A DNA stretch of 64,000 nucleotides from an uncultured Roseburia sp. GTDB lineage: Bacteria > Bacillota > Clostridia > Lachnospirales > Lachnospiraceae. Under the pieces are notes generated by a model. It saw nothing but the letters and a program-made list of their open reading frames with translations, was not told the DNA's origin and did not search any database. Below are positions 26,353 to 43,666 of this stretch, piece by piece; positions within the stretch are counted from its first letter, which is position 1, and each line of letters opens with the position of its first letter. The translations under genes and the position numbers were made by a program. The DNA lies in NCBI GenBank assembly GCA_947567625.1, contig CANONN010000007.1:4803-68802 (forward strand), in the 5' to 3' direction.

Positions 26353-26373
26353 AGGATGGAGGGAGAAGCCGCT

Positions 26374-26805
26374 ATGATAGAGGAAGTAAGAAAAAAGAGC
26401 AAATTGTTGGCGCTCATTATCAGAAATCACCACGAATGTGAGGGTGTGGATTTTTTGACCCCAAACGAGTATTCACAGCAGGTGGCTTATATGCATCACC
26501 CGCAAGGGAAGGTGATTGATGCGCATGTACATAATCTTGTGCACAGAAATGTGGTTTTGACACAGGAAGTACTGGTGATAAAAAAGGGCAAATTGCGTGT
26601 CGATTTTTATGATGAATATGAAGATTATCTGGAAAGCAGAATAATCGGTGCGGGAGATGTCATTTTACTTGTCTCAGGAGGACATGGGTTTAAGGTATTG
26701 GAAGAGCTGGAAATGATCGAGGTCAAGCAGGGGCCGTATGCCGGGGGAGATGATAAGAAGAGGTTTGCGGGAATATCAGATGAGGAGCTTATATTAAAGG
26801 ACTGA
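26374..26805 (+). CDS. Cupin-fold protein (WbuC / sugar-ketoisomerase-like)
   Basis: ATG 26374 follows GGAGGGAG. 'KVIDAHVHN...EVLVIKKGKLRVDFYD...GDVILLVSGGHGF' is a cupin beta-barrel pattern typical of glycan loci. Confidence 0.5.
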   Translation: MIEEVRKKSKLLALIIRNHHECEGVDFLTPNEYSQQVAYMHHPQGKVIDAHVHNLVHRNVVLTQEVLVIKKGKLRVDFYDEYEDYLESRIIGAGDVILLVSGGHGFKVLEELEMIEVKQGPYAGGDDKKRFAGISDEELILKD

Positions 26806-26852
26806 CAAGAGAGAATCAGCGAAGTTTGAATTCATGATTTGGAGAGGGCGCT

Positions 26853-28064
26853 ATGAGAGTATCGATCATAGATGAAACATTAAAAATATATAGAGAAAAC
26901 AGGGTTATTATATTTGGAGCTTCCGCTTCGGGGAAAGGTGTATACAGCATCTTCGAGTCGTTTCAGATCAAAACAGCATTTTTTGTTGATAACGACAGGG
27001 AGAAGTGGGGCAGCCAATGCTGTGGTTTGCCTGTATGCGCCCCGGATGATTTGTCAAAGCAAAAAGACAGCTTTGTGGTATAGATTGCAAGTACGGCGGA
27101 AGACGAGATAGCCGCCCAATTGAGGGAAATGGGAATCGATTGCTATATCATGTATTCGGAAGCGATACACAGATTGATCAACCTGAACCGGTATCAATAT
27201 TTTAAACAGGACGGCAGTAATTATGCATATTATATGCAGCATGTATACGAGTCTTTGGCTGTGCCTAAGATTCAGTATTTGTGGGGGGATGTCATTACCA
27301 ACAATATGTATTCCCCGGAAGAAAGCATATGGCTTTGTATGCCGCCTAAAACGGGTGATTATACGGTGATGAACTCATTGACCCGCGCCGGCAAACGATA
27401 TGTGAATTTTATACATTCCGAATATGCAATGACAAAGAAGTTACAAAAGGCTGTCGGCGGGCGTAAGATCAAAGTGATCTGTGGAGTGAGGGAGCCGATT
27501 GCACAGAATTTGTCATTGATCTATCAGTTGGAGCAGGATGGGCTGCTGTGGAATATGAAGGAAGATTGGCAGGACGGCGGAGATGTTGCAGCGATATTGC
27601 GCCGGCTGTTGGAAAATGAAATTCATTATATAAAAAAAGAACATTATGACTCAGATTTACTCGAAATGAAAGACATGCAATATTATCCGCATACCTACTT
27701 CATTCAAAACTTTTTACAACAGGAATTTAAAAGAAATCTTGGCATAGATATTCTGGCGCATCCATTTGACGTGGAAGAAGGCTATGGGATTGTGAAAGAG
27801 GGAAATATTGAGATCTTTTTGTATCAATTGGAAAGATTAAATGTGGTTTATGAAAAATTATTTGAATTTTTAGGCATTGCGGGAAGCAGATTAGTCACTG
27901 GAAACAGCGCCGAAGACAAATGGTACAACAGATATTACAGAGAGGCAAAAAAGAATATCTCTCTTCCGGCGGATTATATTGACTGGAGCTATGAATGTGA
28001 ATTTACGAAGCATTTTTACAGCGGGCGCCAGATAGAAGAATATATGGCAGCATGGAAAAAATAG
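26853..28064 (+). pseudogene. Rossmann-like module + sulfotransferase-like domain gene interrupted by one in-frame TAG (27081-27083)
   Basis: ORFs 26853..27083 and 27120..28064 are in the same frame. Translation across the stop reads '...QKDSFVV*IASTAEDEIAAQLREMGIDCYIM', a continuous domain. Downstream, 'MPPKTGDYTVMNSL' and 'GVREPIAQNLS' resemble the sulfotransferase PAPS-binding 5'-PSB/3'-PB motifs. Confidence 0.6.
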
Positions 28065-28099
28065 AGATGGATAAGTGAAGAGGAATAAAGGAGAACGAG

Positions 28100-29221
28100 A
28101 TGGGGTTTATACCGGTAAACGAACCATTATTGAATGGCAATGAAAAGAAATATTTATGCGAATGTATTGACAGCGGCTGGATATCTTCGGAAGGGCCGTT
28201 TGTCAAAGAATTTGAAAAAAAGATGAGCGCTGTTGTGGATCGGAAATATGGCATCGCTGTTTCTAACGGCACGGCGGCTTTGGAAGTTGCGGTACAGGCG
28301 CTGGGAATCGGCGAAGGGGATGAAGTGATTATGCCCACATTTACCATTATATCATGTGCGATGGCGGTGACAAAGACGGGGGCCACTCCCGTCTTAGTGG
28401 ACAGTGACCGGTTTACCTGGAATATGAATGTCGATGAGATAGAGGCGAAAATCACTTCCCGGACGAAGGCAATTATGGTGGTACATCTGTACGGGCTGCC
28501 GGTTGACATGGATAAGGTATTGGAGCTTGCAGAAAAATACCATTTAAAAGTGATCGAGGATGCGGCGGAAATGCACGGGCAGACCTATAAAGGCAGAATG
28601 TGCGGCAGCTTTGGAGATATCAGCACTTTTAGCTTTTATCCCAATAAGCATATCACAACGGGCGAAGGCGGTATGATTGTCACGGATGATGAGGAGCTTG
28701 CAGAAAAATGCCGTATGTATCGCAATCTCTGTTTTCAAAAAGACGTCAGGTATGTGCACAACGAGATTGGCGATAATTATCGTTTTACAAATTTGCAGGC
28801 GGCGGTAGGGCTGGCACAGCTGGAGAGACTGGATGAGTTTGTAGCCAAAAAGCGGGAAATCGGCGCTTATTATACGAGCCATCTGAGAGAACTCGAGGGT
28901 TTGATACTGCCTGTAGAGGAGACGGACAGCGCAAAAAATATCTATTGGGTATACGCAATCGTACTGGGAGAAAATATAAAATTATCCAATCGGGAAATGA
29001 CAAAGCGGTTGGGGGAGCGTGGAATTGGCACGCGGACATTCTTCTGGTGTATGCATGAGCAGCCGGTCTATCAAAAAATGGGGCTGTTTCAGGGAGAACA
29101 TTATAAAAACGCGGAGTATTTGGCAAGAAAAGGTTTTTATATTCCAAGCGGCCTCGCATTGACGCGGGAGCAGATGGATGTGGTGGTGGAAGAGCTGACA
29201 GCAATCGTAAAAGGACAGTGA
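28100..29221 (+). CDS. DegT/DnrJ/EryC1/StrS-family PLP-dependent sugar aminotransferase
   Basis: 'EKKYLCECIDSGWISSEGPFVKEFE', 'AVSNGTAALEVAV' and 'FSFYPNKHITTGEGGMIVT' (PLP lysine). Confidence 0.92.
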   Translation: MGFIPVNEPLLNGNEKKYLCECIDSGWISSEGPFVKEFEKKMSAVVDRKYGIAVSNGTAALEVAVQALGIGEGDEVIMPTFTIISCAMAVTKTGATPVLVDSDRFTWNMNVDEIEAKITSRTKAIMVVHLYGLPVDMDKVLELAEKYHLKVIEDAAEMHGQTYKGRMCGSFGDISTFSFYPNKHITTGEGGMIVTDDEELAEKCRMYRNLCFQKDVRYVHNEIGDNYRFTNLQAAVGLAQLERLDEFVAKKREIGAYYTSHLRELEGLILPVEETDSAKNIYWVYAIVLGENIKLSNREMTKRLGERGIGTRTFFWCMHEQPVYQKMGLFQGEHYKNAEYLARKGFYIPSGLALTREQMDVVVEELTAIVKGQ

Positions 29222-29232
29222 GGAGGCCGTTT

Positions 29233-29991
29233 ATGGAAGTTTTTCAGGATTATGCCTATTATTACAATGCATTTTATCAGGATAAAGATTACAAAGGGGA
29301 AGCGGCACAGATCGATTTGCTGTTAAAAAAATACGGTGAAAATGTAAAATCGGTCATCAGTTTCGGGTGCGGTACGGGCAGACATGAGTGCGAATTATAT
29401 AACATGGGATATCAGTGCAGCGGGATTGACATGAGTGAGCTGATGATAGAGATTGCCAGGAAGCATGTATATGAAGAGGGGAAAAATATAGATTTTTTTG
29501 TCTCTGACATCAGAGAGCACAAGTCGCAGGTAAAGTTTGACGCGGTTATTTCACTATTTCATGTCATGAGTTACCAGATTGGCAACCGGGATATTCTGGA
29601 CGCATTTTCCGCGGCGAAAAACTGCCTAAGGCGCGGCGGTTTATTCTTATTTGATGTCTGGTATGGCCCGGGTGTGCTGAGTGATAAACCGGCAGTCCGG
29701 GTGCGCGAGATAGACAATGAGGAAAATAAGCTGGTGCGGATTGCGAGGCCCGTCATGCATGACAAGGAAAATATGGTGGATGTGTGCTATGAGGTACTTG
29801 TGATCAATCAAAAAACGAATATTGTAAAAAAAATTGAGGAAACCCATCATATGCGCTACTTTTTTAGGCCGGAATTGGAATATTTTTTGCAGCAGGCCGG
29901 TTTTGAACTGATCTGTAATTTGGATTGTAATACCTTGGAAGAAACCGATTATGGCTCATGGACGAGTTATTTTATTGCGCGGGCGGTATAA
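29233..29991 (+). CDS. Class I SAM-dependent methyltransferase, TylM1/DesVI-like (aminosugar N-methyltransferase type)
   Basis: ATG 29233 follows AGGAGG. 'YYYNAFYQDKDYKGEAAQIDLLLKKYG' N-terminal signature and 'ISFGCGTGRH' SAM loop. It follows the aminotransferase directly. Confidence 0.65.
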   Translation: MEVFQDYAYYYNAFYQDKDYKGEAAQIDLLLKKYGENVKSVISFGCGTGRHECELYNMGYQCSGIDMSELMIEIARKHVYEEGKNIDFFVSDIREHKSQVKFDAVISLFHVMSYQIGNRDILDAFSAAKNCLRRGGLFLFDVWYGPGVLSDKPAVRVREIDNEENKLVRIARPVMHDKENMVDVCYEVLVINQKTNIVKKIEETHHMRYFFRPELEYFLQQAGFELICNLDCNTLEETDYGSWTSYFIARAV

Positions 29992-30012
29992 GAACGGAAA
30001 GAGGAGATACAA

Positions 30013-31110
30013 GTGAAGAAAATAGTTTTATTATGTCAGCAAATCGGCTGTCCGTTTGAATTGTCACCGGCAAGATACCAGCTTTTAGATGAATTACTGG
30101 AACGAAATTATGAGGTTTATGTATTATTTCCCGGATATATTCCCAACAAAACAATGCGGGATAAAATCGATTGCTTTGTAAATACAGAAGAAATGTCAGA
30201 ACGTGAGATACGAAACAGAATCAGGCAAATCAGCCCGGCGTCTGTGATTGCCTTTACATACGAGGATGCAAGAATACTATATCAGCTGCCGTTGCTGATG
30301 AAAAATACCAACTTTTATTATTACAACTTGGAAATATATACCTGGGCATATGAAAAAAGAGCGCACCGTGCAGGTATCTGTGGTTTTTTGGAAGGCATGC
30401 TCACTTATATCGCGAACAAAACAAAAGAAATCCGCTATGTAAAAAATACGAAGTTGTTTGTAATTCAGGACGAGCTGCGAAAGAAGGTTTCCCAAAAACA
30501 TTTTATCAGGCATAAACATACCATGTTAATCCCAAATTCCTATGTATTTGACAAGGATAACTTATGCGGGGAAGAGGCGAACGGGGTGTGCTATTCCGGC
30601 GGTTTATACAGTGTATGGACGGGCATGTTGTCAGACGGGATTGAGAAAGTGTCAAGAACCCCGATTACCTTTGCGGGGTGGGGAAGCGTATCGTTCAGTA
30701 AAAAAATAAGCAAGATGCCAAATATGAAAGTAGTTTTTCAGCAATTATTGCCGGACGAGTATGACGCATTTTTAAAACAGTACGCGGTAGGGCTTATATG
30801 CTATTCGGAAATTGAGGATGATAATGTTAATTTTATTGGCATGGCATCGGGGAAGTATTTTAAATATTTAAGCCTGGGGCAGCCGGTGATAGCCATGCAT
30901 TGCCTGGGAATGGAGAAAGATATAAAAAGGTACGGGCTAGGGATTGTCATAGATGATGTCTCAAAACTGGATGAGGCGTATGAGCAGATTATTTCTAATT
31001 ACCGGTATTATCGTGATAATGTCAGAAGGGTATACCGTGAGAAATACGATTACAAGAAAGTAATCCGTCCATTTCTGGAGTATTTGGAAAAACAGGAGAA
31101 CGATAAATGA
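30013..31110 (+). CDS. Hypothetical, GT-B-fold glycosyltransferase-like
   Basis: GTG start. The C-terminal 'YFKYLSLGQPVIAMHCLGMEKDIKRYGLGIVIDDVSKLDEAYEQI' resembles the GT-B C-domain. Weak call. Confidence 0.35.
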   Translation: MKKIVLLCQQIGCPFELSPARYQLLDELLERNYEVYVLFPGYIPNKTMRDKIDCFVNTEEMSEREIRNRIRQISPASVIAFTYEDARILYQLPLLMKNTNFYYYNLEIYTWAYEKRAHRAGICGFLEGMLTYIANKTKEIRYVKNTKLFVIQDELRKKVSQKHFIRHKHTMLIPNSYVFDKDNLCGEEANGVCYSGGLYSVWTGMLSDGIEKVSRTPITFAGWGSVSFSKKISKMPNMKVVFQQLLPDEYDAFLKQYAVGLICYSEIEDDNVNFIGMASGKYFKYLSLGQPVIAMHCLGMEKDIKRYGLGIVIDDVSKLDEAYEQIISNYRYYRDNVRRVYREKYDYKKVIRPFLEYLEKQENDK

Positions 31111-31595
31111 AAAAAAGGCTATTTTCAGTGATAAGGCAGCTCTTAATCGTGACAGCCAGTGTGATCGGCGGCAATATTCTGGCTGTGAGAATGAACGAAA
31201 AAAAGTATAAGGAGCTGCAGGCGCTTTTAAAAAAGAATGTGGTTTTATGCCGCCTGTTCCATCAATGGCTCACAATGAAGCAGGAAAAGAAATCAATCAG
31301 CGCTTATCTGGAAAAAAATAATTTTCTGAATGTAGCCATTTATGGAATGGGTGATGCCGGGCAGGCACTGAAAAATGAATTGGCAGGAAGCCGAATATGT
31401 GTCCGCTATGGAATCGACAAACGTGCAGACGAAATTTATTCCGATCTTGAAATTATGACATTAGAAGGGGAACTTCCTGACGTAGACGCTGTGATTGTGA
31501 CATCCGTCTACTTTATTTATGAGGTTGAAAGAGAATTAAACAAAAAGATGAGCTGCCCTGTTTTATCCCTGCAGGATATTTTAGATGAACTATAA
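31107..31595 (+). CDS. Small membrane-anchored protein carrying the recurrent Rossmann-like module
   Basis: N-terminal hydrophobic 'LFSVIRQLLIVTASVIGGNILAV', then 'LNVAIYGMGDAGQALKNEL...GIDKRADE...DAVIVTSVY'. Confidence 0.55.
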   Translation: MKKRLFSVIRQLLIVTASVIGGNILAVRMNEKKYKELQALLKKNVVLCRLFHQWLTMKQEKKSISAYLEKNNFLNVAIYGMGDAGQALKNELAGSRICVRYGIDKRADEIYSDLEIMTLEGELPDVDAVIVTSVYFIYEVERELNKKMSCPVLSLQDILDEL

Positions 31596-31608
31596 GAAGG
31601 AGAAGGCG

Positions 31609-32646
31609 ATGAAAAAAGTCTTGGTTTATGGCGTGGGATGTTTTTTTGAAAACCATGAGGAGCAATTGAAAGAGGAATATGACATTGTAGGTTATGTAGA
31701 TCGTTCCGGCAGCTTACGGGGACAGGAAATTCCTGTTCATGTCAGTGATTTTCAGGGAGAGTATGATCAGATCGTCGTCATGGTGACGAAAATTTCCAGT
31801 TGCTTTGAAATTACGGCGGAGCTATTAAATGCGCCTATTCCATGTGAGCAAATTTTATTGGGATGCTCTTTGTGGGGGGAGTATGCTCTTTATGATGCAA
31901 TCAAGGTGATGCCAAATGGTAAGTATCTTTTAGTGAAAGATGATCTAAACATACAGGTCGGCACGGAAGACGAATTTATGAATGTGACAGAGGTTTTACT
32001 GATGCACTGTTATCACTATGAATTGAGCGGCGGCGGAAAGGAAGTCATTTTTGATGTAGGGATGAATATTGGCGACGCGACATTATATTTTCTGAAGCGC
32101 CCGAATGTCGAAAAAGTGTATGCGTATGAGCCGTTTAAAAAAACATACGGCGATGCGCTGGAAAATCTCAACGAGTATTTGGATTCGCCGCGTTTGGCTG
32201 TATATCAATTTGGCCTTAGCGATCATAACGAAGATAAGGAGATCGTGTTTCACCAAAATATGAGCTGCGGTCAAAGTACCATTCCCTCGGTCAATGAACA
32301 GGCAAGGCAAAATTATGGTGATTGGGGGCTTTTGCAGGGGGGCGATGCCCGGACAGAGTGGATTCAGATCAGGAAGAGTTCAGAGGTTTTTGCGGAGATA
32401 TTGGAAAAACATGCAAATTGCAAATTTATTCTTAAAGTGGATTGTGAGGGCGAGGAGTATGCAATTTTTCAGGACTTGGACCGCAGCGGACTTCTGAAAA
32501 GATTTCATTTTGTCATGGCGGAATGGCACTACAAAGGAGCCGGTCTTTTGTTGGAATGTCTGCGGAACAATGGTTTTTCTCTTTTTACCATGCAAAAGAG
32601 CTTACAGCCTCAGTTGGGGCTGGTGTATGCGTGGAAAGACGAATAA
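31609..32646 (+). CDS. Rossmann-like module + FkbM-family methyltransferase
   Basis: ATG 31609 follows AAGGAGAAGG. 'KVLVYGVGCFF...VGYVDRSG' module, then 'VIFDVGMNIGDATLYF' and 'ILKVDCEGEEYAIF' (FkbM). Confidence 0.75.
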   Translation: MKKVLVYGVGCFFENHEEQLKEEYDIVGYVDRSGSLRGQEIPVHVSDFQGEYDQIVVMVTKISSCFEITAELLNAPIPCEQILLGCSLWGEYALYDAIKVMPNGKYLLVKDDLNIQVGTEDEFMNVTEVLLMHCYHYELSGGGKEVIFDVGMNIGDATLYFLKRPNVEKVYAYEPFKKTYGDALENLNEYLDSPRLAVYQFGLSDHNEDKEIVFHQNMSCGQSTIPSVNEQARQNYGDWGLLQGGDARTEWIQIRKSSEVFAEILEKHANCKFILKVDCEGEEYAIFQDLDRSGLLKRFHFVMAEWHYKGAGLLLECLRNNGFSLFTMQKSLQPQLGLVYAWKDE

Positions 32647-32698
32647 AGGGTATGCATAGACCGCGTCACGGCAAAAGATATCATTTTAAGGAGTAAAA

Positions 32699-35014
32699 AT
32701 GAGAGCTGTCATTTTTGGAACAGGGGATACATATCAGCGATATAAGGATGCTTTCCGCAATATGGAAATCGTAGGTTTTATCGACAATAATGAGACGAAG
32801 TGGGGAACGATGCTGGACGGTTATCCCATTTTTTCACCCGTCAAATTATCAGAGGCAGAGTTTGATTATGTTTTTTTGGTCAGTGCTTCTTATGTGGAAA
32901 TGCGCAAACAACTGAGGGGACTGGGCATACCGGAACAAAAGATGATCGATAAAGATCATTTGCAGTTTTTTGATCATCTCGTTGAGACCGAAAATTTCAT
33001 GTTTCCCGCCAATACAGAGCAGAAGAGGGCGGGAAAAAGGATTCTGTTACTATCACACTCCCTGGATTTGACGGGGGCGCCGGTGGCGCTTTGCCAGTTG
33101 GCCGGTGTGCTAAAGCACAATGGCTGCGGGGTAACGGTCTATGCCGAAAAAAATGCGAAAGTCAAACACGGAGAGTTATTATATAAGCTTTTGGAAGAGG
33201 GAATTTCTGTTTCATTTTTTACTGATTTGAACGCGTTAAGAATTGCCGATTTGGAGAATGCATTTGACCTGTTCTGGGTGAATACCATTACGCTGTGTCA
33301 TGTCGTGGAGAAATTGCTGCCGACTGGCAAAAGAGTATATTGGTGGTTACACGAGGCAGATGATTTCTATCGCGGTATGGGTGCGTTGCAAAGATATCCG
33401 CACGCTGAAAATTTATATGTATATTCGGCCGGCTGGATAGCGGGCGGGGCATATGAGAGGTTTTCGGGAAATAAAGTTACGGGAAATCTGTTGTATGGAA
33501 TTTCGGATGGTTCGATGAAAGGGGGCGGCGAATCCAGAGAAACAGGTAAGGTTAAATTTGGGCTGGTGGGAGCATACAGCGAACGCAAGGGACAGGACAT
33601 TTTTTATTCGGTGATATCGGCGCATGCTCAAGAATGGATGGATGGCGCGGAATTTTTGTTTATTGGAGCGATACCGCAAGAGGTAAAAGACAAGTACGAA
33701 AAAATTCCCGCGATCCACTGCATGGGAGAGGTATCCCCGGACAGACTGGCCAGGCTGTATGATGATTTGGATGTTTTGGTCTGTCCATCGAAATATGATC
33801 CGATGCCGGTGGTTGTTTCGGAGGCTATGCAGCATAAACGGTTATGTCTTGTGACAAACAGAGTCGGGCAGTCGCGGTATATGACAGACGGTGTGAACGG
33901 TTTGATTTGCGAGGCTGAGAATGAGGAGGCCCTTGCAGGTAAAATTGCCTGGATTTTACAACACAGAGAAGAGATCGGGCGGATTGGCGAAAGAGGATAC
34001 GCAATTTATAAAGACCATTTTTCTATGGATATATTTGAAAAAAATGTTCTTGCCATTTTAAAAGAAATAGATAAAGGGCATGGCGGACATTCGAGTTCAG
34101 AAAATATCAGAGAGCAGCGTGTAACATGCAAGATTGTGTTATGGGGAACGGGGGCTGCCTATAATCGTGTCAGAAACGCGCTTCGCTATTTGGAACTGAC
34201 AGGGCAGATTGAAATTGTCGGAATCACCGCAAAGCAGCTGCCGCCGGCGAAACACTTGGACGGCTATCGCTTGCTGCGTCCCGGGGAATTAAGCGATACC
34301 GTGTATGACTATATCTTTGTATTGTCAGACCGGTATTATAGTGAGATTGTCCATGACGCAGTGACGTTATATGGAATTGCGCGCAACAGACTATTGCGTT
34401 ACGAGGTGTTGTTGATTCCTGAGTTAAGTTTACAACGGTATTTTATGTTGTATGAAAGCCAAATGACTATTTTATCAAATAATTGCTGGGGAGGGATGTT
34501 GTGTAAAGCCTTGGGCATGGAGTGCAGATCTCCGCTGAAAAATTTATTTTTGACGGATGAGGATTATTTGAAATTATTGTCAGATCTTAAATTTTATTTT
34601 TCCCAAGTGCCCTGTTATAAGAGAGATGACATGGATGCACATTCCAAGAAAAAATATCCTGTTTTAGGGCTGTGCGATATCGAAATACATTGTAATCACG
34701 CGAGCGGACCGGATGAAGCAATCCGGGATTGGATGAGGCGGGTAAAGAAAGTAAATTATAACAATCTCTTTTGCGAAATGTATACAGAGAATCGCGAAAG
34801 CGCGGTTAGATTCCGCGCATATAAGCAATACGAAAAGAGGATATGTTTTGTGCCTTGGAAAACAGAGGAACCGCATCTGATGCAGTTAAAACTCGGAGCC
34901 GGACAAAAGGAGTTCTGGGAAGCTGTCAATAGCAGTGCGGCTTTTGGCAGCAACGGCGTAACGTTTCATTTAATCGATTTGTTATTAGGGGAAGTGAAAT
35001 GGCGGCTATCGTAA
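32699..35014 (+). CDS. Multidomain: module + GT4 glycosyltransferase + second module + DUF1919-like domain
   Basis: 'MRAVIFGTGDTY...GFIDNNETKWG'. GT4 motifs 'ILLLSHSLDLTGAPVAL' and 'VLVCPSKYDPMPVVVSEAMQH...DGVNGLI'. Second module 'CKIVLWGTGAAYNRV'. C-terminal 'ILSNNCWGGMLCKALGMECRSPLKNLFL' is the DUF1919 signature. Confidence 0.8.
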   Translation: MRAVIFGTGDTYQRYKDAFRNMEIVGFIDNNETKWGTMLDGYPIFSPVKLSEAEFDYVFLVSASYVEMRKQLRGLGIPEQKMIDKDHLQFFDHLVETENFMFPANTEQKRAGKRILLLSHSLDLTGAPVALCQLAGVLKHNGCGVTVYAEKNAKVKHGELLYKLLEEGISVSFFTDLNALRIADLENAFDLFWVNTITLCHVVEKLLPTGKRVYWWLHEADDFYRGMGALQRYPHAENLYVYSAGWIAGGAYERFSGNKVTGNLLYGISDGSMKGGGESRETGKVKFGLVGAYSERKGQDIFYSVISAHAQEWMDGAEFLFIGAIPQEVKDKYEKIPAIHCMGEVSPDRLARLYDDLDVLVCPSKYDPMPVVVSEAMQHKRLCLVTNRVGQSRYMTDGVNGLICEAENEEALAGKIAWILQHREEIGRIGERGYAIYKDHFSMDIFEKNVLAILKEIDKGHGGHSSSENIREQRVTCKIVLWGTGAAYNRVRNALRYLELTGQIEIVGITAKQLPPAKHLDGYRLLRPGELSDTVYDYIFVLSDRYYSEIVHDAVTLYGIARNRLLRYEVLLIPELSLQRYFMLYESQMTILSNNCWGGMLCKALGMECRSPLKNLFLTDEDYLKLLSDLKFYFSQVPCYKRDDMDAHSKKKYPVLGLCDIEIHCNHASGPDEAIRDWMRRVKKVNYNNLFCEMYTENRESAVRFRAYKQYEKRICFVPWKTEEPHLMQLKLGAGQKEFWEAVNSSAAFGSNGVTFHLIDLLLGEVKWRLS

Positions 35015-35090
35015 TAAGGCAGACAGCCCCGATCAGGGTAATGTTACAAAACTAGATTGAGAGAACACAGGATAACAGGAGGTTTTATTT

Positions 35091-36221
35091 ATGGAAGTTT
35101 ATATCTGGGGAACGGGTGAGCTGGCGCAGACATGTATGGAAGATCTCGTGCCTGGCGTGCATGTATTGGGTTTTGTGGAAAGCGCACCTGGCAAAAAGGA
35201 GTTTTGCGGGAAGAAAGTGATTGCGGGGAGCGCCGTTGCAGATACGTCCTATGATTATATGATACTGGCAAATTCGCATGAGGATGAAATTATAAAAAAT
35301 TTTTTACTGGATGAAAAGAGAACCGTATGTTATAGGATGGAGCTTGAAAATGGTGAGGATGGAGCAATCACATTTAGAAGAAATAATCCCGGATTATCAG
35401 ACGAGTTATTTCAAAGCCAAAGGAAATTGGAGGTCACGGAACTGGCACGGGATGTGATGCCCTGCATTTCTTTACAGTTGGAACATGTAAAATTTATATT
35501 TGACCATAATGATAATTTGATACCAAATGAAATGATCGGATATGGAAAAGTCTATAGCAAGGATGAGATGTGCTTTTTCTATGAGATGGCGCCTAAAATG
35601 GAGGGAGGTTTTTTCCTGGATATCGGTGCAAATGTCGGGACAACATCCATCTACTTTAAAAAGAATATTTGCGGTTCTTTGAAATATATTGCTTTTGAGC
35701 CGTTAAAGGATAATTACAAATATTTAAAAATGAACTGTATTTTAAATGATTGTGAAGATATCAAGGCAGAAAATATAGGAATGTCAAATACGGAAGGGCA
35801 GAAAAAAATGTTTGTTTTTGACGGGGCATTTGGCTCTTCTATGGTTTCCGATGGGAAAGAGGCATCGGATTTGTGCGAATTTATGTCGCTGGATCAATAT
35901 ATCCAGCGCAATCAATTATCTGCGGACGATATTGGCTATCTGTGGGTTGATGTGCAGTGTCATGAATTAGAAGTGCTCGAGGGTGCGAAAAAGACATTGA
36001 CAGATTCCAGAGCGAGCCTGTTTATCGAGTTCAATGTCGGAGTGTACCGGGAAGAGGGAAAATGCGAAAAATTCCTGGGAATCCTGAAAGATATCTATTC
36101 AAAATTTATATGTTATGAGCAGTATGCGAACGGAAGAAAAGAGGTTCGCGCTATTGAGGAATTGTTTGAACTGCCAAAAGAAATAAATGCGCCATTTTGC
36201 AATATTTTACTCATGAAATAG
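35091..36221 (+). CDS. Rossmann-like module + FkbM-family methyltransferase
   Basis: 'MEVYIWGTGELAQ...LGFVESAPGKKEF', then 'FFLDIGANVGTTSIYF' and 'LWVDVQCHELEVLEGA'. Confidence 0.75.
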   Translation: MEVYIWGTGELAQTCMEDLVPGVHVLGFVESAPGKKEFCGKKVIAGSAVADTSYDYMILANSHEDEIIKNFLLDEKRTVCYRMELENGEDGAITFRRNNPGLSDELFQSQRKLEVTELARDVMPCISLQLEHVKFIFDHNDNLIPNEMIGYGKVYSKDEMCFFYEMAPKMEGGFFLDIGANVGTTSIYFKKNICGSLKYIAFEPLKDNYKYLKMNCILNDCEDIKAENIGMSNTEGQKKMFVFDGAFGSSMVSDGKEASDLCEFMSLDQYIQRNQLSADDIGYLWVDVQCHELEVLEGAKKTLTDSRASLFIEFNVGVYREEGKCEKFLGILKDIYSKFICYEQYANGRKEVRAIEELFELPKEINAPFCNILLMK

Positions 36222-36231
36222 CAGCTGAAAA

Positions 36232-36375
36232 GTAACAGTTCAGCCTGCAACTGCGCACTTGCTGCGCAGTTAGCAGCCAGTAGTGCCGAACAGTAAAAAA
36301 AGCCGCTCCTTTGCCGCAGGCAAACTTTAAATGGAGCAGATTCCGTAACAGGGAAGCCGAAGGCTGAACTGTTAC
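36232..36375 (+). repeat. Family-1 structured intergenic element, copy B
   Basis: Perfect 14-nt terminal inverted repeats GTAACAGTTCAGCC (36232-36245) / GGCTGAACTGTTAC (36362-36375). Internal hairpins AACTGCGCA-cttgc-TGCGCAGTT and GCTCC[TTTGCC-gca-GGCAAA]ctttaaatGGAGC. Confidence 0.85.
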
Positions 36376-36393
36376 GCTGAAAAGGAAATATAT

Positions 36394-37500
36394 ATGAAAA
36401 GAGTTATAATCTTCGGTTTTGGTGAGATGGGGAAAAAATTGACAGAGGAATGTCTCAGATATGACGCCGGGGTAGAGGTGCTTGCGATTGCCGACAATAA
36501 GGCGGAGGCTGCACCATATCATGGCATACCTGTCATCTTGCCGTCAGAAATAGGAAAATTCCTTTTTGATGAAATATGGGTTTGTACCGTTTATTTCAAA
36601 GAAATTATGCGGCAGCTTGTCGACGAATATGGTGTGGAACGGGAAAAAATACATTTTACGGAACCGGTTATGCCTGTTTTGGAAAAGAGACTGCGCAAAA
36701 AGTATGAGAAACAGCTCCGTAAAGGGGAAGCTGTTTCAGGAGAACTTGGTGAGGTACTGCAATATTTGAATCATAATCCGCTGCGCATGTATTGCTATGC
36801 GTTTTATGACGAATATCTGTACCGCGATACGCCTGTTTTTTATGACGAGAGGGCAGGCTTATATTTTGGGCTGTATGAGAATAAAAAAATGTATCTGGCC
36901 AAAAGATTTGATACGGAACAAAAGGCGAGGGCATATTTGAATGGGGTTCTGATGGAGCAGGATGAGCGCTCCCCCCATTGTTATTGGAATGACAGGAACA
37001 TGAAGCAGCTGAAAGGGGTAGGAGTGGACGTAGGGGCTGCCGAAGGCATATTTGCGTTGAAAATCATCAATCAGGCAGAACATATCTATCTTGCCGAGGT
37101 AGATTCCGAGTGGATAGAGGCATTGCACTATACGTTTGAGCCGTTTGAGCAAAAGGTGACGATTGTTCCGAAATTTATAGCGGATAAAGATGATGGACAA
37201 TCGGTAAGGCTGGATACACTGCTGAAGGAAGAGCGCGTTGATTTTTTGAAAATGGATATTGAAGGTGTAGAATATCAGGCGTTACAGGGGGCAGAAAATT
37301 TATTGGCGCATCATAATGTGCAATTGGCGCTGTGCGTGTACCACAATCAGGATGATAACCAAAAGATAGCACAGTGGCTGGGGGAACGCGGATACCGTAC
37401 CCGTAATTCACCGGGTTTTGTTGTCTGTCAGGGTGATTGGGAGCTTGAGGCGGATGCCGCTGACTTTAGGAGAGGTTTACTATTTGCCTGCAAAGAATAG
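36394..37500 (+). CDS. Rossmann-like module + FkbM-like methyltransferase
   Basis: 'KRVIIFGFGEMGKKL...LAIADNKAEAAPYHGIPV', then 'GVDVGAAEGIFALKI' and 'FLKMDIEGVEYQALQGA'. Confidence 0.7.
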   Translation: MKRVIIFGFGEMGKKLTEECLRYDAGVEVLAIADNKAEAAPYHGIPVILPSEIGKFLFDEIWVCTVYFKEIMRQLVDEYGVEREKIHFTEPVMPVLEKRLRKKYEKQLRKGEAVSGELGEVLQYLNHNPLRMYCYAFYDEYLYRDTPVFYDERAGLYFGLYENKKMYLAKRFDTEQKARAYLNGVLMEQDERSPHCYWNDRNMKQLKGVGVDVGAAEGIFALKIINQAEHIYLAEVDSEWIEALHYTFEPFEQKVTIVPKFIADKDDGQSVRLDTLLKEERVDFLKMDIEGVEYQALQGAENLLAHHNVQLALCVYHNQDDNQKIAQWLGERGYRTRNSPGFVVCQGDWELEADAADFRRGLLFACKE

Positions 37501-37537
37501 TGTGAAAAATCAGCTTGATAGCTGATTTTATCACACG
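37501..37537 (+). terminator. Rho-independent terminator
   Basis: GTGTGA-AAAATCAGCT-tgat-AGCTGATTTT-ATCACAC. The nested perfect palindrome ending in TTTT starts right after the stop codon. Confidence 0.75.
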
Positions 37538-37541
37538 GCTA

Positions 37542-37649
37542 TTTGTGCTGGAGCGTTACAAATAAGCCCTGATCCGACAAGAGAAACTGCATTCGCAGAT
37601 TTCTCTTGCGGTTCCTCGAACGTAAACGTTCTCGGAATGAGGGATTAGT
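37542..37649 (+). repeat. Family-2 structured leader element, copy E (upstream of the GT2 gene)
   Basis: Same 5' block 'ATTTGTGCTGGAGCGTTACAAATA' and 3' block 'CGTAAACGTTCTCGGAATGAGGGATTAG' as copy D. The long-range helix is kept through G-U pairs. The internal hairpin CAAGAGAAA[CTGC-attc-GCAG]aTTTCTCTTG replaces those of copy D. Confidence 0.7.
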
Positions 37650-37690
37650 GTGAAACACCATATAAAATGAATCGGGAGAAGAGGGCATAG

Positions 37691-38920
37691 ATGAAATATT
37701 TGGCAATCTGTATACCAAATTATAACCGGATTGATAAATTAAGGCGATTGTTGGAGGAAACGGTCACACAGATTCTAAGGGATTCCCTGGAAGATGAGGT
37801 CGAATTATGTGTCAGCGATGATCATTCGGCAGAGGACCCCTCTGATCTGATCAGGGAACTAAAAGAAGTATATCCGCAGATATTCTTTCGCTATGCAAGA
37901 AATGAAGAGAATCGGGGGATGGATTACAATTTCTTAAAGAGCGTCATATTGGCGGAAAGCGAATACTGCTGGATTATTGGCAATGATGATCTGCCAACGG
38001 AATATGGGATACAGAAAGTAGTAGCGCAATTGAAAAATTGCCATAGCAAACCCGATCTTTTGGTTACACCGTTTGATATTTATACGGATGAGGAAATGGT
38101 GCGCGGTACGATATGGCCGCTGGGCGATACGCGCGGCCAGGCATTGCAGTTTGACACGTCAGACCAGGAGGAATACAAAAAACTTCTTCTGTCCGTACAG
38201 CATAACAGTGGCTTATTCGGGTTTTTGTCGAATACGGTTTTCCGCAGAGAAAAGTGGTTGGAATATCAGGGCAGATTTCAGGACAAGTTAAATACTATTT
38301 TCATCCAAATGTATATGAATATCCAGACGTTAGGGGATGGCGCAGTATATTTCTATGCTCCTGAAAAAGTGATTAAAAATTATGCCGATGACGCAACCAA
38401 TGAGTCGGTAAAAAGAATCTGCAAAATTCTTTTTGGCTTAAACGGAGTGGTGGAATACTTTTTTTCCGGGACCGTGGGGGAGAGACTCAAAAAAGTAATA
38501 GTGGATGCTTATATCAGCGGGAGTGTGTGGGAGCTGCCGGAATGTGATCCTGATAAGGAAAGGGTTAGGAAAATAGAAACAGATAAAAATAAGCTGTATA
38601 AAAAATATTTTATCAGCCCGGATAATAGAAAACATTTTTTTGCAGGCAAAGAGATTGTCATATTTGGTGCAGGCGACTATGGCAGGAAAGTTTTTCGTGA
38701 GCTGCAAGATTATAATGTTACCGTGGCCGGAATTATGGACTCCGATCATGCAAAAAGGGGGCAGACGTTTTACGGCCATATCATCAATTTACCGGAACAG
38801 ATGCTTGGTACATGCCGGGAAAAGGGATGGACGATCGTAGTGGCAAATCATTTTCATCTGCCGGACATGGTGGATTTGCTTTTAAAAAATGAGGTGGAAT
38901 ATATTGCGTTGATTTGTTAA
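37691..38920 (+). CDS. GT2-family glycosyltransferase + C-terminal Rossmann-like module
   Basis: 'LAICIPNYNRIDKLRRLL...CVSDDHSAED' GT2 signature. C-terminal 'GKEIVIFGAGDYGRKVFREL...GIMDSDHAKRGQ'. Confidence 0.75.
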   Translation: MKYLAICIPNYNRIDKLRRLLEETVTQILRDSLEDEVELCVSDDHSAEDPSDLIRELKEVYPQIFFRYARNEENRGMDYNFLKSVILAESEYCWIIGNDDLPTEYGIQKVVAQLKNCHSKPDLLVTPFDIYTDEEMVRGTIWPLGDTRGQALQFDTSDQEEYKKLLLSVQHNSGLFGFLSNTVFRREKWLEYQGRFQDKLNTIFIQMYMNIQTLGDGAVYFYAPEKVIKNYADDATNESVKRICKILFGLNGVVEYFFSGTVGERLKKVIVDAYISGSVWELPECDPDKERVRKIETDKNKLYKKYFISPDNRKHFFAGKEIVIFGAGDYGRKVFRELQDYNVTVAGIMDSDHAKRGQTFYGHIINLPEQMLGTCREKGWTIVVANHFHLPDMVDLLLKNEVEYIALIC

Positions 38921-38990
38921 GCGCCGGGGAGGACGGCCGGTGACAAAGTTGCGGTGCACAGTAAGGCCGATGTGGTTGTAGTTTAACATT

Positions 38991-40118
38991 GTGGGAATGG
39001 AGAAATCAATGATATTTAAAAATAGTACCTATGAAAGTTTGAAAGAGAAGATAGGAAACAGAAAGATCATTCAATTCGGGGCATCCTCTGCGTGGCATTA
39101 TTACAGCAAGGTTTTCCCTGATATCGTGGAGACGGTTGTAGACCATACGGCATTTATTGTAGATAATGACGCGGCAAAGCAGGGAACGGAGCTTGTGATT
39201 GCCGATCGCAGGCTGTCGGTAGTGCCGGTAGAGCGTATCGCAGAGGCAAATGATTTTGTCATCTTGATTACGGTCAGCCTGGCTTACCAAAAAAGCATAT
39301 GCGAGCAGTTAATCGAAATGCGTCTGCCGGAACATACAGAGTGCTATTCCCTGCCGCTTATGACATTCCGCACACAAAATGCGGATAATACCTGTGTAGC
39401 GGAATACTTTAGCAGGCATACGGTTCCGGTGAATGTGCCAAAAATCCACAGCTTTTGGTTCAGCGGGGAGGAAAAGCCGGATTTATTTAAGCGCTGTTTG
39501 GAGAGTTGGCATAAGTATTGCCCTGAATTTGAGATTATAGAGTGGAGTACAAAAAACTATGACGTGACAAAGAATCCGTATATGCGAGAAGCGTTTGAGC
39601 ATAAAAAGTGGGCATTTGTATCAGATTATGTGAGATTGGATGTTTTGTATCAATATGGCGGCATTTACATGGACATGGATGTCGAGTTAGTGGCGTCTCT
39701 TGCGCCATTGCTGAACGCGGACAGTTTTTTCTGTCGGCAGGAGGACGGCCTTCTCGAACTGGGTTCCGGCTTTGGTGTGCGCGCAAAAGACCCGCTGATC
39801 GGGGAAATGCTGGCTACTTATAAAAACCGCAGGTTGATTATGGAGAACGGTGCAACGGATATGACGCCGCAGCCGGAATGGCTGAGCAGTATTTTAACAA
39901 AATACGGCTTTAGGAAATGCCATGATTCGCAGATTATCAATGACAGGCTGATATTATCAAACGATTATATTACTTGTTCGACGGACGGCAATCCAAAGGA
40001 GACGGCAAAATTAGGAGTACACTGGCATAACGGGAGCTGGCTCGGGGAAAAGGACAGAAAATTGATTAAGGATTCTCTTTCCGTCAGAGAGAAATTGCTG
40101 GAGGATTACTTTAAGTAA
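38991..40118 (+). CDS. Rossmann-like module + GT32-type (DXD, Gly_transf_sug) glycosyltransferase
   Basis: 'RKIIQFGASSAW...FIVDNDAAKQG', then 'PKIHSFWFSGEEKP' and 'SDYVRLDVLYQYGGIYMDMDVE'. The start could be GTG 38991, ATG 38997 or ATG 39009. Confidence 0.75.
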   Translation: MGMEKSMIFKNSTYESLKEKIGNRKIIQFGASSAWHYYSKVFPDIVETVVDHTAFIVDNDAAKQGTELVIADRRLSVVPVERIAEANDFVILITVSLAYQKSICEQLIEMRLPEHTECYSLPLMTFRTQNADNTCVAEYFSRHTVPVNVPKIHSFWFSGEEKPDLFKRCLESWHKYCPEFEIIEWSTKNYDVTKNPYMREAFEHKKWAFVSDYVRLDVLYQYGGIYMDMDVELVASLAPLLNADSFFCRQEDGLLELGSGFGVRAKDPLIGEMLATYKNRRLIMENGATDMTPQPEWLSSILTKYGFRKCHDSQIINDRLILSNDYITCSTDGNPKETAKLGVHWHNGSWLGEKDRKLIKDSLSVREKLLEDYFK

Positions 40119-40123
40119 GGGGC

Positions 40124-41542
40124 ATGGAGGGACACGCGGTGAAATTTCTCCTTTTTGGTACAGGCGATTATTATGAGCGCTATAAGAAATGGTTTCATAA
40201 AAATGACATTGTGGCGCTTATCGACAATTCATTACAAAAACAACATACCACACTGGATGGTATTGACATATTGCCGCCGGAGGAGGGAATAGCCCTGCCG
40301 TTCGATGTGGTCGTCATTCTCAGTTTTTATGTGAAAGAGATGCGGTTACAGTTGATAAAACTGAGCGTTGCGGAAGATGTGATTTATCACTTTTATGATT
40401 TACACCGTTTCTTTGATCGGGAAGAGTTAAAACAGCCGCTGCAATGTTTTGGAGGGGCCAAGGAGCTGATCGGTCCAGGAAATCAATCGGAAAAACAGAT
40501 ACTTCTGCTCTCACAGGACTTGACGTTGGGGGGCCCGGCGATCGCTCTGTTCCATGCAGCGGAAATTTTGATGAGACACGGTTTTAAGGTAGTGTATGCC
40601 TCCATGTTGGACGGGCCGTTGAGAGAAAGGCTGCTTTCGGCAAAGATACCCGTAGTTGTCGATGCCAATTTGCAGTTGGCGACAATGCAGGAGGCCGAAT
40701 GGACCAATTGTTTTTCGTTGCTTATCTGTAATACGATTAATTTTCATGTGTTTTTGCAAAGAAGAAATAACCGGATACCGGTTGTTTGGTGGCTGCACGA
40801 TTGTGAGTTTTTTTATGACGGTATTGACAAGGAATCCTTAAAAAGGATAGACAGGAAAAACTTAAAAATAGTTTCGGTAGGGCCTGTTCCGCAAAAGGCG
40901 TTTCAAAAATTTGTGCCGGATGTGCCTGTGGATAGATTATTGTATGGCGTGGCGGACATTGACAAAAGCGCTGCATATGAGCAGTGGGAACAGAATAAGC
41001 TGCATTTTGTCACGATCGGTTTTCTGGAAGATATCAAAGGACAAGATCTGCTTGTGCAGGCGCTGCGCCGATTGCCGCAAAATATGAGATGTAAGGCAGA
41101 GTTTTGGCTGATAGGGCATGATAAAACGCTATTTGCGCAGAAGGTGAAAGAGATGAGCGGATGGATGCCGGAAGTCAAGTTTGCGGGCAGTGTAAACCGT
41201 GAGACGATACACCGGATGTTACATAGTGCAGATGTATTGGTGTGTCCGTCGAGACAAGACTCGATGCCGACAGTGGCAGCCGAAGCGATGATGCATTCCG
41301 TTCCATGCATCATGTCTGATGCGGCCGGGACGGCGGCATATATTCGGGACGGCGTGAATGGATTTGTTTTTCAAAGTGAAAATGTGGAAGAATTATCGGT
41401 CAAAATAAATTGGTGTTTGAAACATCATGACGGATTATATGAGATCGGTATTCAGGCAAGGAAAATTTATGAGCAATATTTTTCTATGAACGTGTTTGAA
41501 AAGAATTTGCTCCATATTGTAAACGGGATGTTCACCGGATGA
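40124..41542 (+). CDS. Rossmann-like module + GT4 glycosyltransferase
   Basis: 'VKFLLFGTGDYYERY...ALIDNSLQKQH', then 'ILLLSQDLTLGGPAIAL' and 'VLVCPSRQDSMPTVAAEAMMHSVPCIMSDAAG...DGVNGFVF'. Confidence 0.8.
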   Translation: MEGHAVKFLLFGTGDYYERYKKWFHKNDIVALIDNSLQKQHTTLDGIDILPPEEGIALPFDVVVILSFYVKEMRLQLIKLSVAEDVIYHFYDLHRFFDREELKQPLQCFGGAKELIGPGNQSEKQILLLSQDLTLGGPAIALFHAAEILMRHGFKVVYASMLDGPLRERLLSAKIPVVVDANLQLATMQEAEWTNCFSLLICNTINFHVFLQRRNNRIPVVWWLHDCEFFYDGIDKESLKRIDRKNLKIVSVGPVPQKAFQKFVPDVPVDRLLYGVADIDKSAAYEQWEQNKLHFVTIGFLEDIKGQDLLVQALRRLPQNMRCKAEFWLIGHDKTLFAQKVKEMSGWMPEVKFAGSVNRETIHRMLHSADVLVCPSRQDSMPTVAAEAMMHSVPCIMSDAAGTAAYIRDGVNGFVFQSENVEELSVKINWCLKHHDGLYEIGIQARKIYEQYFSMNVFEKNLLHIVNGMFTG

Positions 41543-41586
41543 GATAGAGAAGCGGAAACGCCGCAACCAGGGAAAGAGAGTGTAAC

Positions 41587-43638
41587 GTGTCAGAATTATC
41601 GCAGATACTTCGGAAATTCAAAAACAGTAAAATTGCCATTTATGGGCTTGGCACAGAGACGGAAAAGGTGTTGGCCGAAATGGGGCAGGCGTTTCAAATA
41701 ATCGGTTTGCTGGATGGTTATCGCGAAGACGGCATGCTGTATGGGAAGAAGATTATTTCAATGGCAGAGGCAGTCACAGATCAGGTGGAACTGATTCTTG
41801 TGGTGGCAAGGCCGGGTTCCTGTAAAGCGATTACAAAACGAATTGGACAGACCTGTATCCAGCATGGTATTGTTTTGATGGATGTGCGAGGAAAAAATCT
41901 CTGCGATGCGAAAAGAATTTCTTATGATTTCGGAGGAGTTAGTGGAATCACAGAGGATGCACTAAAGCAGCGGGCTGCCGGGAAAGACGTGGTGAGTGTA
42001 GATCTGTTTGACACGCTTGTCATGCGACAGACGCTGTTTCCGGAAGATGTACTGGACATGCTTGACTTTAGGTTGAGAGAAAAGGGCATCAGGATTGAGG
42101 ATTTCTGTGCGAGACGTTTAGAGAGTGAAAAATGTTTGTCCAAGGTTACGGCGCCATCACTTGTGGATATTTACAGCCATATGTTAAAGCAGTACCCTAC
42201 CGTAGATATTGCACCGGAAACATTGGCCGAGATGGAATGGCAGATTGACTATGGGCTACTTGTCCCAAGAGAGAGGATGTGTGAACTCATATCCGGGATT
42301 TATGACATGGGAAAGGCAGTCTATATCGTCTCTGATACATATTACAGTAAGGCACAGCTTAAGGCAGTGCTGGAGAAAATCCAATTCAGCGCTTATGAAG
42401 ATATCTTTGCATCCTGCGAATATGGTACAGGCAAGCGGCAGCAGCTGTTTCAGAAATTACAGGAGAGAACAGGGGAAAAACCGTGTCTGCATATCGGGGA
42501 TGATACGGTTGCGGACGGGGAGTGCGCAGAAGAACATGGGATTGAGGCGTGCCACATATGCAGCGGTATTGAATTGCTGGAGATGCTTGGATACCTGGGG
42601 TTGTGGGATAGGATAGAACGATTGTCTGACAGGATTAAAGCAGGGATGTTTGTGGCAAATCTTTTTAACAGCCCGTTTCAGTTTGAACCGGGAGCACAGG
42701 AAATCCGCGTCAGGAAAGCATTTGATATCGGGTATTTATTTTTTGCACCGGTTATCACGGATTTTGTCTTTTGGTTCCGGAAGCAGGTAAAACGATACCG
42801 TCTGGAAAACATCTGTTTTTGTGCGCGGGACGGATACCTGATTAAAAAATTGTATGATGCGCTGGCCGGGGATGAGACGTCTCTTTATTTTCTGACTTCG
42901 CGAACGGCTGCGATTCGCGCGGGGATAGAAAACGAAGCGGATATCCGCTACGTCGAAGAAATGAAATTCAGCGGTACATTAAAAGAGCAGCTAAAGGAGC
43001 GATTTGGAATTTTGGCAGAACCCGATGAGGAGAGGGGGCTGCTTGATTATGCGGAAAAGATCTTAGACAAGGCTGCCATGGACCGTAAAGGTTATCAGGC
43101 ATATATTGGGCGGCTGGGGATGAAAAAAGGAGACACAGCTTTTTTTGATTTTGTCGCCAAGGGAACTTGTCAGATGTTTATGGGGCGTCTGTTGGACAAT
43201 CATTTGAAAGGACTCTATTTTTTACAGCTGGAAGAGGAGCATATGAGGGGAAACGGGCTTGATATCGTGCCGTTTTATAAAGCCGAAGAGATGGAAAACA
43301 GCGCTATTTTTGAGAATTATTATATCCTGGAAACCGTCCTGACGGCGCCGTGGCCTTCTGTAAAAGGATTTGGTGAAGATGGAGAACCCCAATATGCCAG
43401 GGAAACGCGGGGAGCGGAAGCTCTTGCGTGCATTCAGGCAGTACAAGATGGGATTGCCGCTTATTTCCGTACATATTTGAAGTTGTGCCCGAAGGAGGCA
43501 CGGTCAGAGAATAAGCTGTTGGATGAGGTTTTCTTATCTATGTTACATGGCGTTTCTGTTTTGGAGGAAGCTTTTTTGAAATTAAAGACGGAGGACCCGT
43601 TTTTCAACAGAATGACGGATATGACAAATCTGCTGTAA
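41587..43638 (+). CDS. Rossmann-like module + HAD-superfamily hydrolase (COG5610-like) + large uncharacterised C-terminal region
   Basis: 'SKIAIYGLGTETEKV...GLLDGYREDG', then HAD motif I 'VVSVDLFDTLVMRQ' and motif IV-like 'LHIGDDTVADGE'. GTG start. Confidence 0.65.
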   Translation: MSELSQILRKFKNSKIAIYGLGTETEKVLAEMGQAFQIIGLLDGYREDGMLYGKKIISMAEAVTDQVELILVVARPGSCKAITKRIGQTCIQHGIVLMDVRGKNLCDAKRISYDFGGVSGITEDALKQRAAGKDVVSVDLFDTLVMRQTLFPEDVLDMLDFRLREKGIRIEDFCARRLESEKCLSKVTAPSLVDIYSHMLKQYPTVDIAPETLAEMEWQIDYGLLVPRERMCELISGIYDMGKAVYIVSDTYYSKAQLKAVLEKIQFSAYEDIFASCEYGTGKRQQLFQKLQERTGEKPCLHIGDDTVADGECAEEHGIEACHICSGIELLEMLGYLGLWDRIERLSDRIKAGMFVANLFNSPFQFEPGAQEIRVRKAFDIGYLFFAPVITDFVFWFRKQVKRYRLENICFCARDGYLIKKLYDALAGDETSLYFLTSRTAAIRAGIENEADIRYVEEMKFSGTLKEQLKERFGILAEPDEERGLLDYAEKILDKAAMDRKGYQAYIGRLGMKKGDTAFFDFVAKGTCQMFMGRLLDNHLKGLYFLQLEEEHMRGNGLDIVPFYKAEEMENSAIFENYYILETVLTAPWPSVKGFGEDGEPQYARETRGAEALACIQAVQDGIAAYFRTYLKLCPKEARSENKLLDEVFLSMLHGVSVLEEAFLKLKTEDPFFNRMTDMTNLL

Positions 43639-43666
43639 AAAATACAAGAGAACAGGAAGAGGGCTA

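Follow-up and report, generated by a model that had tools for sequence, protein, structure and literature searches.

A small Rossmann-type accessory domain recurs eleven times in ten genes of a glycan island from an uncultured Roseburia sp.

In the PglD-type protein Pcryo_0637, the N-terminal domain is a platform for uridine diphosphate (UDP); the Asp pair after strand 2 (Asp40) and Ser11 of the first loop contact the ribose and uracil, Asp40 and Ser11 touching the ribose hydroxyls and amides of the loop touching the phosphates (PMC8040287). The related domain of WbaP, when isolated, was stabilised by uridine monophosphate, UDP, and uridine triphosphate, it makes up the greater part of the dimer interface, and an allosteric role has been proposed for it (PMC10942596). 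In EpsZ, dimerisation through the same domain as in WbaP is regulated (PMC12802240). The subject of this report is a module of about 90 residues related to these domains, found in a stretch of 64,000 nt from an uncultured Roseburia sp. (assembly GCA_947567625.1, contig CANONN010000007.1, positions 4,803-68,802 of the forward strand), referred to in full as the window. Eleven copies of the module were extracted by their start motifs from ten open reading frames (ORFs), in which they are joined to glycosyltransferases (GT), methyltransferases, and other glycan-enzyme domains or stand alone. Positions are those of the window, and E-values of the independent and leave-one-out profiles described below are given where they apply.

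m01, 26901-27185, + strand: in gene 26853-28064, module followed by an NKWYS domain (PF10364); independent E 1e-22, leave-one-out E 7e-9
m02, 31329-31592, + strand: C-terminal part of the 162-aa protein 31107-31595; independent E 1.9e-4, leave-one-out E 0.096
m03, 31612-31881, + strand: N-terminal in the FkbM methyltransferase 31585-32646; independent E 1.1e-9
m04a, 32699-32983, + strand: N-terminal, before the GT4 domain of the 771-aa protein 32699-35014; independent E 1.5e-30
m04b, 34130-34429, + strand: internal in the same 771-aa protein, before DUF1919; independent E 1e-10
m05, 35091-35360, + strand: N-terminal in the FkbM methyltransferase 35091-36221; independent E 6.6e-13
m06, 36397-36681, + strand: N-terminal in the FkbM-like methyltransferase 36394-37500; independent E 6.5e-21, leave-one-out E 2.9e-7
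m07, 38648-38917, + strand: C-terminal in the GT2 glycosyltransferase 37691-38920; independent E 1.2e-13
m08, 39060-39374, + strand: N-terminal in the GT32 (Gly_transf_sug) protein 38991-40118; independent E 5e-10, leave-one-out E 0.16
m09, 40139-40423, + strand: N-terminal in the GT4 glycosyltransferase 40124-41542; independent E 4.2e-26
m10, 41626-41910, + strand: N-terminal in the 683-aa HAD-type protein 41587-43638; independent E 3.9e-7

The segments, all 11 of them, are genuine copies of a single ancient domain. Leave-one-out profiles recovered nine of the 11 copies at E < 0.01, the exceptions being m02 and m08, and an independent profile built from 195 foreign domain instances, none of them 50% or more identical to any window copy, recovered all 11 (E 1.5e-30 to 1.9e-4; search space of 23,821 six-frame ORFs of the genome). 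The genome-wide profile scans gave 17 matches, of which 11 were the window copies, five belonged to another glycan locus, on contig C8, and one was a CapD/PglF-like protein; the recurrence in the window, where the copies are concentrated within 15 kb, is thus far from chance. The genome's Rex was an additional weak match to the independent profile (E 7e-5). The common alignment follows the pattern h-h-I-F/Y/W-G-x-G/S, about 20 residues, h-G-F-h-D-N/D, G-x-x-V/I, Y/F-D-x-h-h-h, a helix with Q-L, and G-V/I (h, hydrophobic). An initial annotation of the window had proposed a module of about 80 residues present 11 times in 10 ORFs, and this was borne out, the segments proving homologous to each other; its coordinates were correct within a few codons, and its partner assignments hold (NKWYS PF10364, FkbM in three genes, GT4 with DUF1919, GT2, GT32, GT4, and HAD). 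The FkbM domain (PF05050) covers residues 157-332 of the 31585-32646 product, and the HAD-IA model TIGR01549 scores above its own cut-off in the 41587-43638 product. The protein that bears m02 consists of an N-terminal hydrophobic helix (residues ~8-27), a helical linker, and then the module, and is referred to as the anchored protein.

A model of the m04a segment, predicted with AlphaFold2 (AF2) from a 27-sequence alignment, reached a predicted local distance difference test score (pLDDT) of 94.4 and has five parallel strands and four helices. In this model, the module is a truncated Rossmann-type fold of the order b1-aA-b2-b3-aB-b4-aC-b5-aD, with five strands in the sheet versus six in the classical dinucleotide-binding Rossmann fold. 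Its closest structure was 2G6T (VIA-align Z 14.4, root-mean-square deviation [rmsd] 2.1 over 93 of 95 residues; Foldseek template-modelling score 0.82), followed by 3NKL (Z 10.3), residues 52-152 of the FkbM protein 2PY6 (9.8), the WbaP accessory domain 8T53 (9.2), and Rex (9.2), with lower values for the C-domain of TcaB9 (8.2) and for the PglD-type N-domains 7L7Y (Pcryo_0637; 8.0) and 7TXP (7.2). A profile of the 11 copies found two solved structures by sequence, 3NKL, a WbpM-type N-domain (E 2.8e-6), and 2G6T (E 3.6e-6). With hhalign, the module matched the genome's own CapD-like protein (PF13727 + Polysacc_synt_2) at a probability of 93% and the genome's own Rex at 70%. Against Pfam, PF22674 (C2185-like_N; curated gathering cut-off 27 bits) was exceeded by m04b (48.4) and m04a (29.9), while m05 (21.9) and m06 (15.1) fell below it and the others were unreported. 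The remaining copies gave weak matches to PglD_N, CoA_binding, Methyltransf_14, NeuD, and Rex, those of m07 being to PglD_N, NeuD, and Rex. Among 95 foreign family members, 32 matched PF22674 at E <= 1e-4, and the newer PF22674.3 annotation covers the intact homologues of the m01 gene. On these Pfam, structural, and profile-profile matches, the module is a member of the PF22674 lineage, which is part of a larger group of small domains that bind nucleotides; more distant members of that group are the PF13727 domain of WbaP/PglF-like enzymes, the PglD/NeuD acetyltransferase N-domain, and the domain with which Rex senses NAD(H).

The domain family is already catalogued, with solved structures, and the window is a rich new instance of it. 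The structure behind PF22674, 2G6T from Clostridium acetobutylicum, is an N-domain with DUF1919, and this whole architecture is reproduced by m04b and its DUF1919; in contrast to 2G6T, window copies also occur on seven other enzyme types, and only two of the 11 exceed the curated cut-off of the Pfam version searched. As PF22674 has no assigned function, membership explains nothing about role. The PF13727 (CoA_binding_3) domains of WbaP (8T53) and of WbpM/PglF/CapD-type dehydratases (3NKL) are like the module both in fold and as accessory domains of glycan enzymes. No window protein matched the PF13727 hidden Markov model at E <= 0.1, and the genome's CapD-like protein matched it at 63.1 bits. 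Unlike WbaP, the window proteins have no four-helix membrane bundle, and the partners of the module are soluble transferases and tailoring enzymes. The FkbM methyltransferase 2PY6 from Methylobacillus flagellatus carries the module N-terminally, as do three of the window genes; it is a structural-genomics entry, and we know of no functional study of its N-domain.

Kinship with the N-domain of NeuD/PglD-type proteins, of which the module had seemed reminiscent in the initial annotation, is real and distant. The N-acetyltransferases of the PglD/NeuD/VioB/PerB type (PF17836, TIGR03570; 7L7Y, 7TXP, 4EAA) are similar to the module in fold (Z 7.2-8.0; Z 7-8 for VioB, PerB, and Pcryo_0637) and in motif layout, with a G-x-G/S loop followed by h-G-F-h-D-D/N. 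However, PglD_N (16.8 and 15.6 bits versus a cut-off of 23.4) and TIGR03570 (33.8 versus 160.8) stayed below their cut-offs, PF22674 and PF13727 are closer, and no hexapeptide or left-handed beta-helix (LbH) acetyltransferase domain was found in the ten window proteins. Rex (1XCB, 2VT3, 3KEO) uses its domain as a dinucleotide sensor and dimer. It matched the module with a Foldseek E of 2e-4, and the rmsd of 4-5 Å is due to the extra elements of Rex; no winged-helix Put_DNA-bind_N domain was found in the window proteins, and the genome's true Rex lies elsewhere, on contig C15. The absence of any described role, as it had been put before these searches, holds for PF22674, for which literature searches found no paper on the function of the domain, and does not hold for the related WbaP domain, for which uridine-nucleotide binding, dimerisation, and proposed allosteric control are published.

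Residue conservation was determined over 221 instances of the module: G7 99%, D29 96%, L72 93%, G9 90%, D56 84%, P47 81%, Q71 78%, and K34 70%. G7-x-G9 after strand 1 and D29 at the end of strand 2 are the classical positions of a nucleotide site. In the window, the first Gly is present in 11 of 11 copies, the second in nine (Ser in the other two), and an Asp or Glu after strand 2 in ten; the anchored copies (m02 and that of locus C8) keep the full GxGxxG and the Asp. Residues F11, G12, G14, D34, N35, P52, Q76, and L77 of m09 are invariant in 36 homologues. The AF2 model of the full-length GT4 protein that bears m09 was confident as a whole (pLDDT 94.1, predicted template-modelling score 0.91) and its linker structured, which suggests that the module is packed rigidly on the GT4 domain as an integrated domain rather than as a floppy tag.

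Together with the precedents of the PglD-type and WbaP domains, the conserved nucleotide-site residues and the predicted packing on GT4 favour a nucleotide-binding, dimerising accessory domain like that of WbaP, a reading by analogy to which we give a probability of about 0.55. Each copy would bind a nucleotide in the canonical crevice, be it a nucleoside monophosphate, a nucleoside diphosphate (NDP), or a nucleotide-sugar gripped by its nucleotide moiety. The phosphates would be held by the G-x-G/S loop after strand 1 and the ribose hydroxyls by the near-invariant Asp that follows strand 2. In addition, the copies would form pairs, and tandem copies and proteins made of modules only were counted as a sign of intrinsic pairing. 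The outcome would be a shared nucleotide-dependent control and a dimeric state for the enzymes, as published for the WbaP domain. Common nucleotide binding had been one of the functions suggested initially, and the pattern of conserved residues is consistent with it. Several points weigh against this reading. Only ~39% of the 221 instances have the third Gly of GxGxxG, with Tyr often in its place, and m04b has Ala in place of the Asp after strand 2. D56, G41, and G76 are not near the canonical crevice, so that their role may be a structural one, and the proposed equivalence of residues to those of Pcryo_0637 rests on motif position. The FkbM, radical S-adenosylmethionine (SAM), HAD, and NKWYS partners have no common nucleotide by-product, and product feedback of the WbaP type is therefore not a general rule. 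If the module were a nucleotide sensor or an assembly handle, it would point to a general rule for the coordination of glycan pathways and would extend the findings on WbaP and EpsZ from initiating to late enzymes.

The distribution of the module was surveyed by a profile search of 1.84 billion representatives, in which 12,429 clusters passed a threshold of E <= 1e-3 and 1,035 one of E <= 1e-10. The best 150 proteins had one to four copies each, located N-terminally (109), internally (76), C-terminally (42), or alone (13); tandem copies (2-4 per protein) were common, and several of these proteins consisted of two or three modules only. Partners, assigned in 95 of the best 150, were GT4, GT2, FkbM, class-I methyltransferases, WbsX, GT-D, LicD, TylF, and DUF1919. 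The module was present in eight of 18 congeners, and in a class-wide sample in 13 of 150 genomes, mostly with 1-3 copies. The densest tagging was seen in one congener (G010; loci L002/L003, G010:C52:63100-92400), with ~19 copies in 18 nearly consecutive genes over ~29 kb, the partners including GT61, GT2, GT4, FkbM, a TagF-like glycerophosphotransferase, a cytidylyltransferase-like protein, and a GDSL hydrolase. The second locus in the genome of the window is the following.

L001 (G000:C8:36000-55000), ~4100-15460, - strand: second glycan locus with five module genes (two GT2, WbsX, radical SAM, and an anchored 171-aa protein)

Its nucleotide-sugar genes are without the module (NDP-sugar 4,6-dehydratase-type, DegT-type aminotransferase, nucleotidyltransferase, NAD-dependent epimerase/dehydratase-family, and dTDP-4-dehydrorhamnose 3,5-epimerase-type), and none of the nucleotide-sugar-making enzymes checked bears it. 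The module is a promiscuous accessory domain of late-acting glycan enzymes, that is, of transferases and tailoring enzymes. With a range that takes in GT2, GT4, GT32, GT61, WbsX, TagF-like, FkbM, radical-SAM, HAD, GDSL, and DUF1919 partners, the family is one of the commonest accessory domains of bacterial glycan enzymes, and loci like that of the window (11 copies in 15 kb, one of them anchored and stand-alone) are a good test bed of diverged copies. In another genome (L008, G140:C93), adjacent proteins of 165 and 174 aa (6181-6675 and 7929-8450) both begin with a strongly hydrophobic helix and end with a module; a nearly identical locus occurs in L009 (G166:C8), the two belonging to two genera of one family.

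The copies are old. Pairwise identity among the window copies is 9-37%, and the nearest pairs share their architecture, as do m04a and m09 (37% identity), both of which precede a GT4 domain. For the anchored m02, identity is 32% with its anchored counterpart in locus C8 and 47% with the module that a congener carries in an anchored protein of 212 aa. A tree of 74 modules from ten loci was poorly resolved; on it, partner family required 16 changes versus 24.1 in shuffles (0 of 1000 as low), and genome required 46 versus 50.3 (25 of 1000). The copies therefore group weakly by fusion partner and hardly by locus. Since related genomes share both labels, the tree shows only that module and partner were inherited as units and that there was no homogenisation within a locus. 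Recent duplication or gene conversion within the locus was rejected, given the identities of 9-37% and the weak grouping by genome; each island enzyme brought its own long-diverged copy.

The genes that bear the module lie in an island of low guanine-plus-cytosine (GC) content, with transposase-type ORFs at both flanks.

24217..44335, + strand: glycan island of low GC content, with 16 closely spaced genes in one orientation, 10 of them module-bearing
22654-23637: TnpB/Cas12f-like ORF at one flank of the island
44677-45549: PD-(D/E)XK transposase at the other flank

The GC content of the island is 0.40-0.46 versus 0.50-0.57 in the flanks, and the gaps between its 16 genes range from -11 to 190 nt. 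Of the 16 products, the anchored protein 31107-31595 alone has a hydrophobic helix. The island itself was not found in the 18 congeners searched, which, together with the transposase-type ORFs, suggests that it was acquired horizontally. A search of the genome contigs for related loci with the GT4 protein found no relative. Mouse-gut metagenome runs from nine studies contain the island. A context of flagellin glycosylation was rejected, as flagellar genes do not adjoin and there is one weak FliD_C match ~6 kb upstream.

Other explanations of the module were weighed on the same evidence. It could be part of the enzyme's own substrate site, as in PglD and VioB, and grip the nucleotide end of a nucleotide-linked sugar or acceptor on which the methyltransferases, the radical-SAM and HAD enzymes, and the transferases would act; much of the tailoring would then take place at the level of nucleotide-sugars. 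The use of the PglD-type N-domain as a UDP platform, the structural matches to the N-domains of VioB, PerB, and Pcryo_0637 and to the C-domain of TcaB9, the predicted rigid packing on GT4, the weak grouping by partner family (16 versus 24.1 changes, 0/1000), and the same conserved crevice residues are all compatible with such a platform. However, copies that are stand-alone, tandem-only, or membrane-anchored lack a catalytic partner, the module may be N-terminal, C-terminal, or internal on the same enzyme classes, enzymes of the GT-A and GT-B types already hold the donor nucleotide, and the enzymes of both loci that modify nucleotide-sugars (aminotransferase, dehydratase, epimerases) are without it, and this explanation is considered possible but unlikely. 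The module might also be inert, an aid to folding or solubility that came down with each enzyme and engages neither ligand nor partner. This reading would fit the lack of a demonstrated function for PF22674 and of functional annotation for the structural-genomics entries 2G6T and 2PY6. It is highly improbable in view of the polar residues that are near-invariant in 221 diverged instances (D29 96%, D56 84%, Q71 78%, K34 70%), of the repeated acquisition of the module by unrelated enzyme folds, and of its persistence as stand-alone proteins.

A handle for docking was the other function suggested at the outset. Modules would pair across proteins, the anchored protein 31107-31595 would tether the soluble enzymes at the membrane, and nucleotide binding would be vestigial or secondary. 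Related domains do dimerise, no product of the 16 island genes other than the anchored module protein has a hydrophobic helix, the second locus and loci of other genomes have similar anchored copies (47% identity to that of a congener), and up to 11 copies in the window and 19 in congener G010 are found per locus. Against this, identity within the locus is only 9-37% and the copies show no surface signal specific to the locus, the modules group weakly by genome (46 versus 50.3 changes), the best-conserved residues are of the ligand-site type and the anchored copies keep the full GxGxxG and Asp, the linker in the GT4 model is predicted to be structured rather than a flexible tether, and some multi-copy loci are without an anchored copy; docking as the primary role is accordingly regarded as doubtful. 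Similar doubt applies to a bolder proposal, in which the modules would be the glue of a scaffold-free glycan assembly line, those of the soluble enzymes pairing among themselves and with the anchored copy, with up to 10-18 enzymes held at the membrane via 31107-31595 and one shared nucleotide switching all of them on or off.

The copy m01 is broken in this strain. The first copy had been described as the N-terminus of a sulfotransferase-like gene; the module and the NKWYS domain are present, and the copy is not cleanly N-terminal, as an in-frame TAG (27081-27083, + strand) lies inside the module, between strand 4 and the remainder. Homologues of gene 26853-28064 are intact proteins of ~400 aa with the module and NKWYS and have Gln at the position of the stop, among them the 403-aa homologue P0151 (PF22674.3 + PF10364). 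Position 27081 is C (CAG) on contigs from three mouse-gut metagenome runs of three studies and T in an isolate-type run. The TAG is a strain-specific nonsense mutation (CAG>TAG) that replaces a conserved Gln codon; the island is otherwise intact. Read-through of the TAG or an alternative genetic code was rejected because wild populations read CAG, which makes it a plain nonsense mutation and not a case of recoding.

Some further proteins of the window were recorded. Within the island, the products of 24217-26352 (711 aa) and 30013-31110 (365 aa) had no Pfam match, and searches of PDB sequences with both gave nothing useful; the 365-aa protein has a faint resemblance to a glucosyltransferase (E 0.012). 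Outside the island, the 913-aa ORF 56829-59570 combines an EF-G-like GTPase (GTP_EFTU, EFG_IV, EFG_C) with a C-terminal nuclease domain of the YacP/Rae1-type NYN family, an unusual-looking fusion in which a ribosome-binding GTPase is joined to a member of a ribosome-dependent RNase family.

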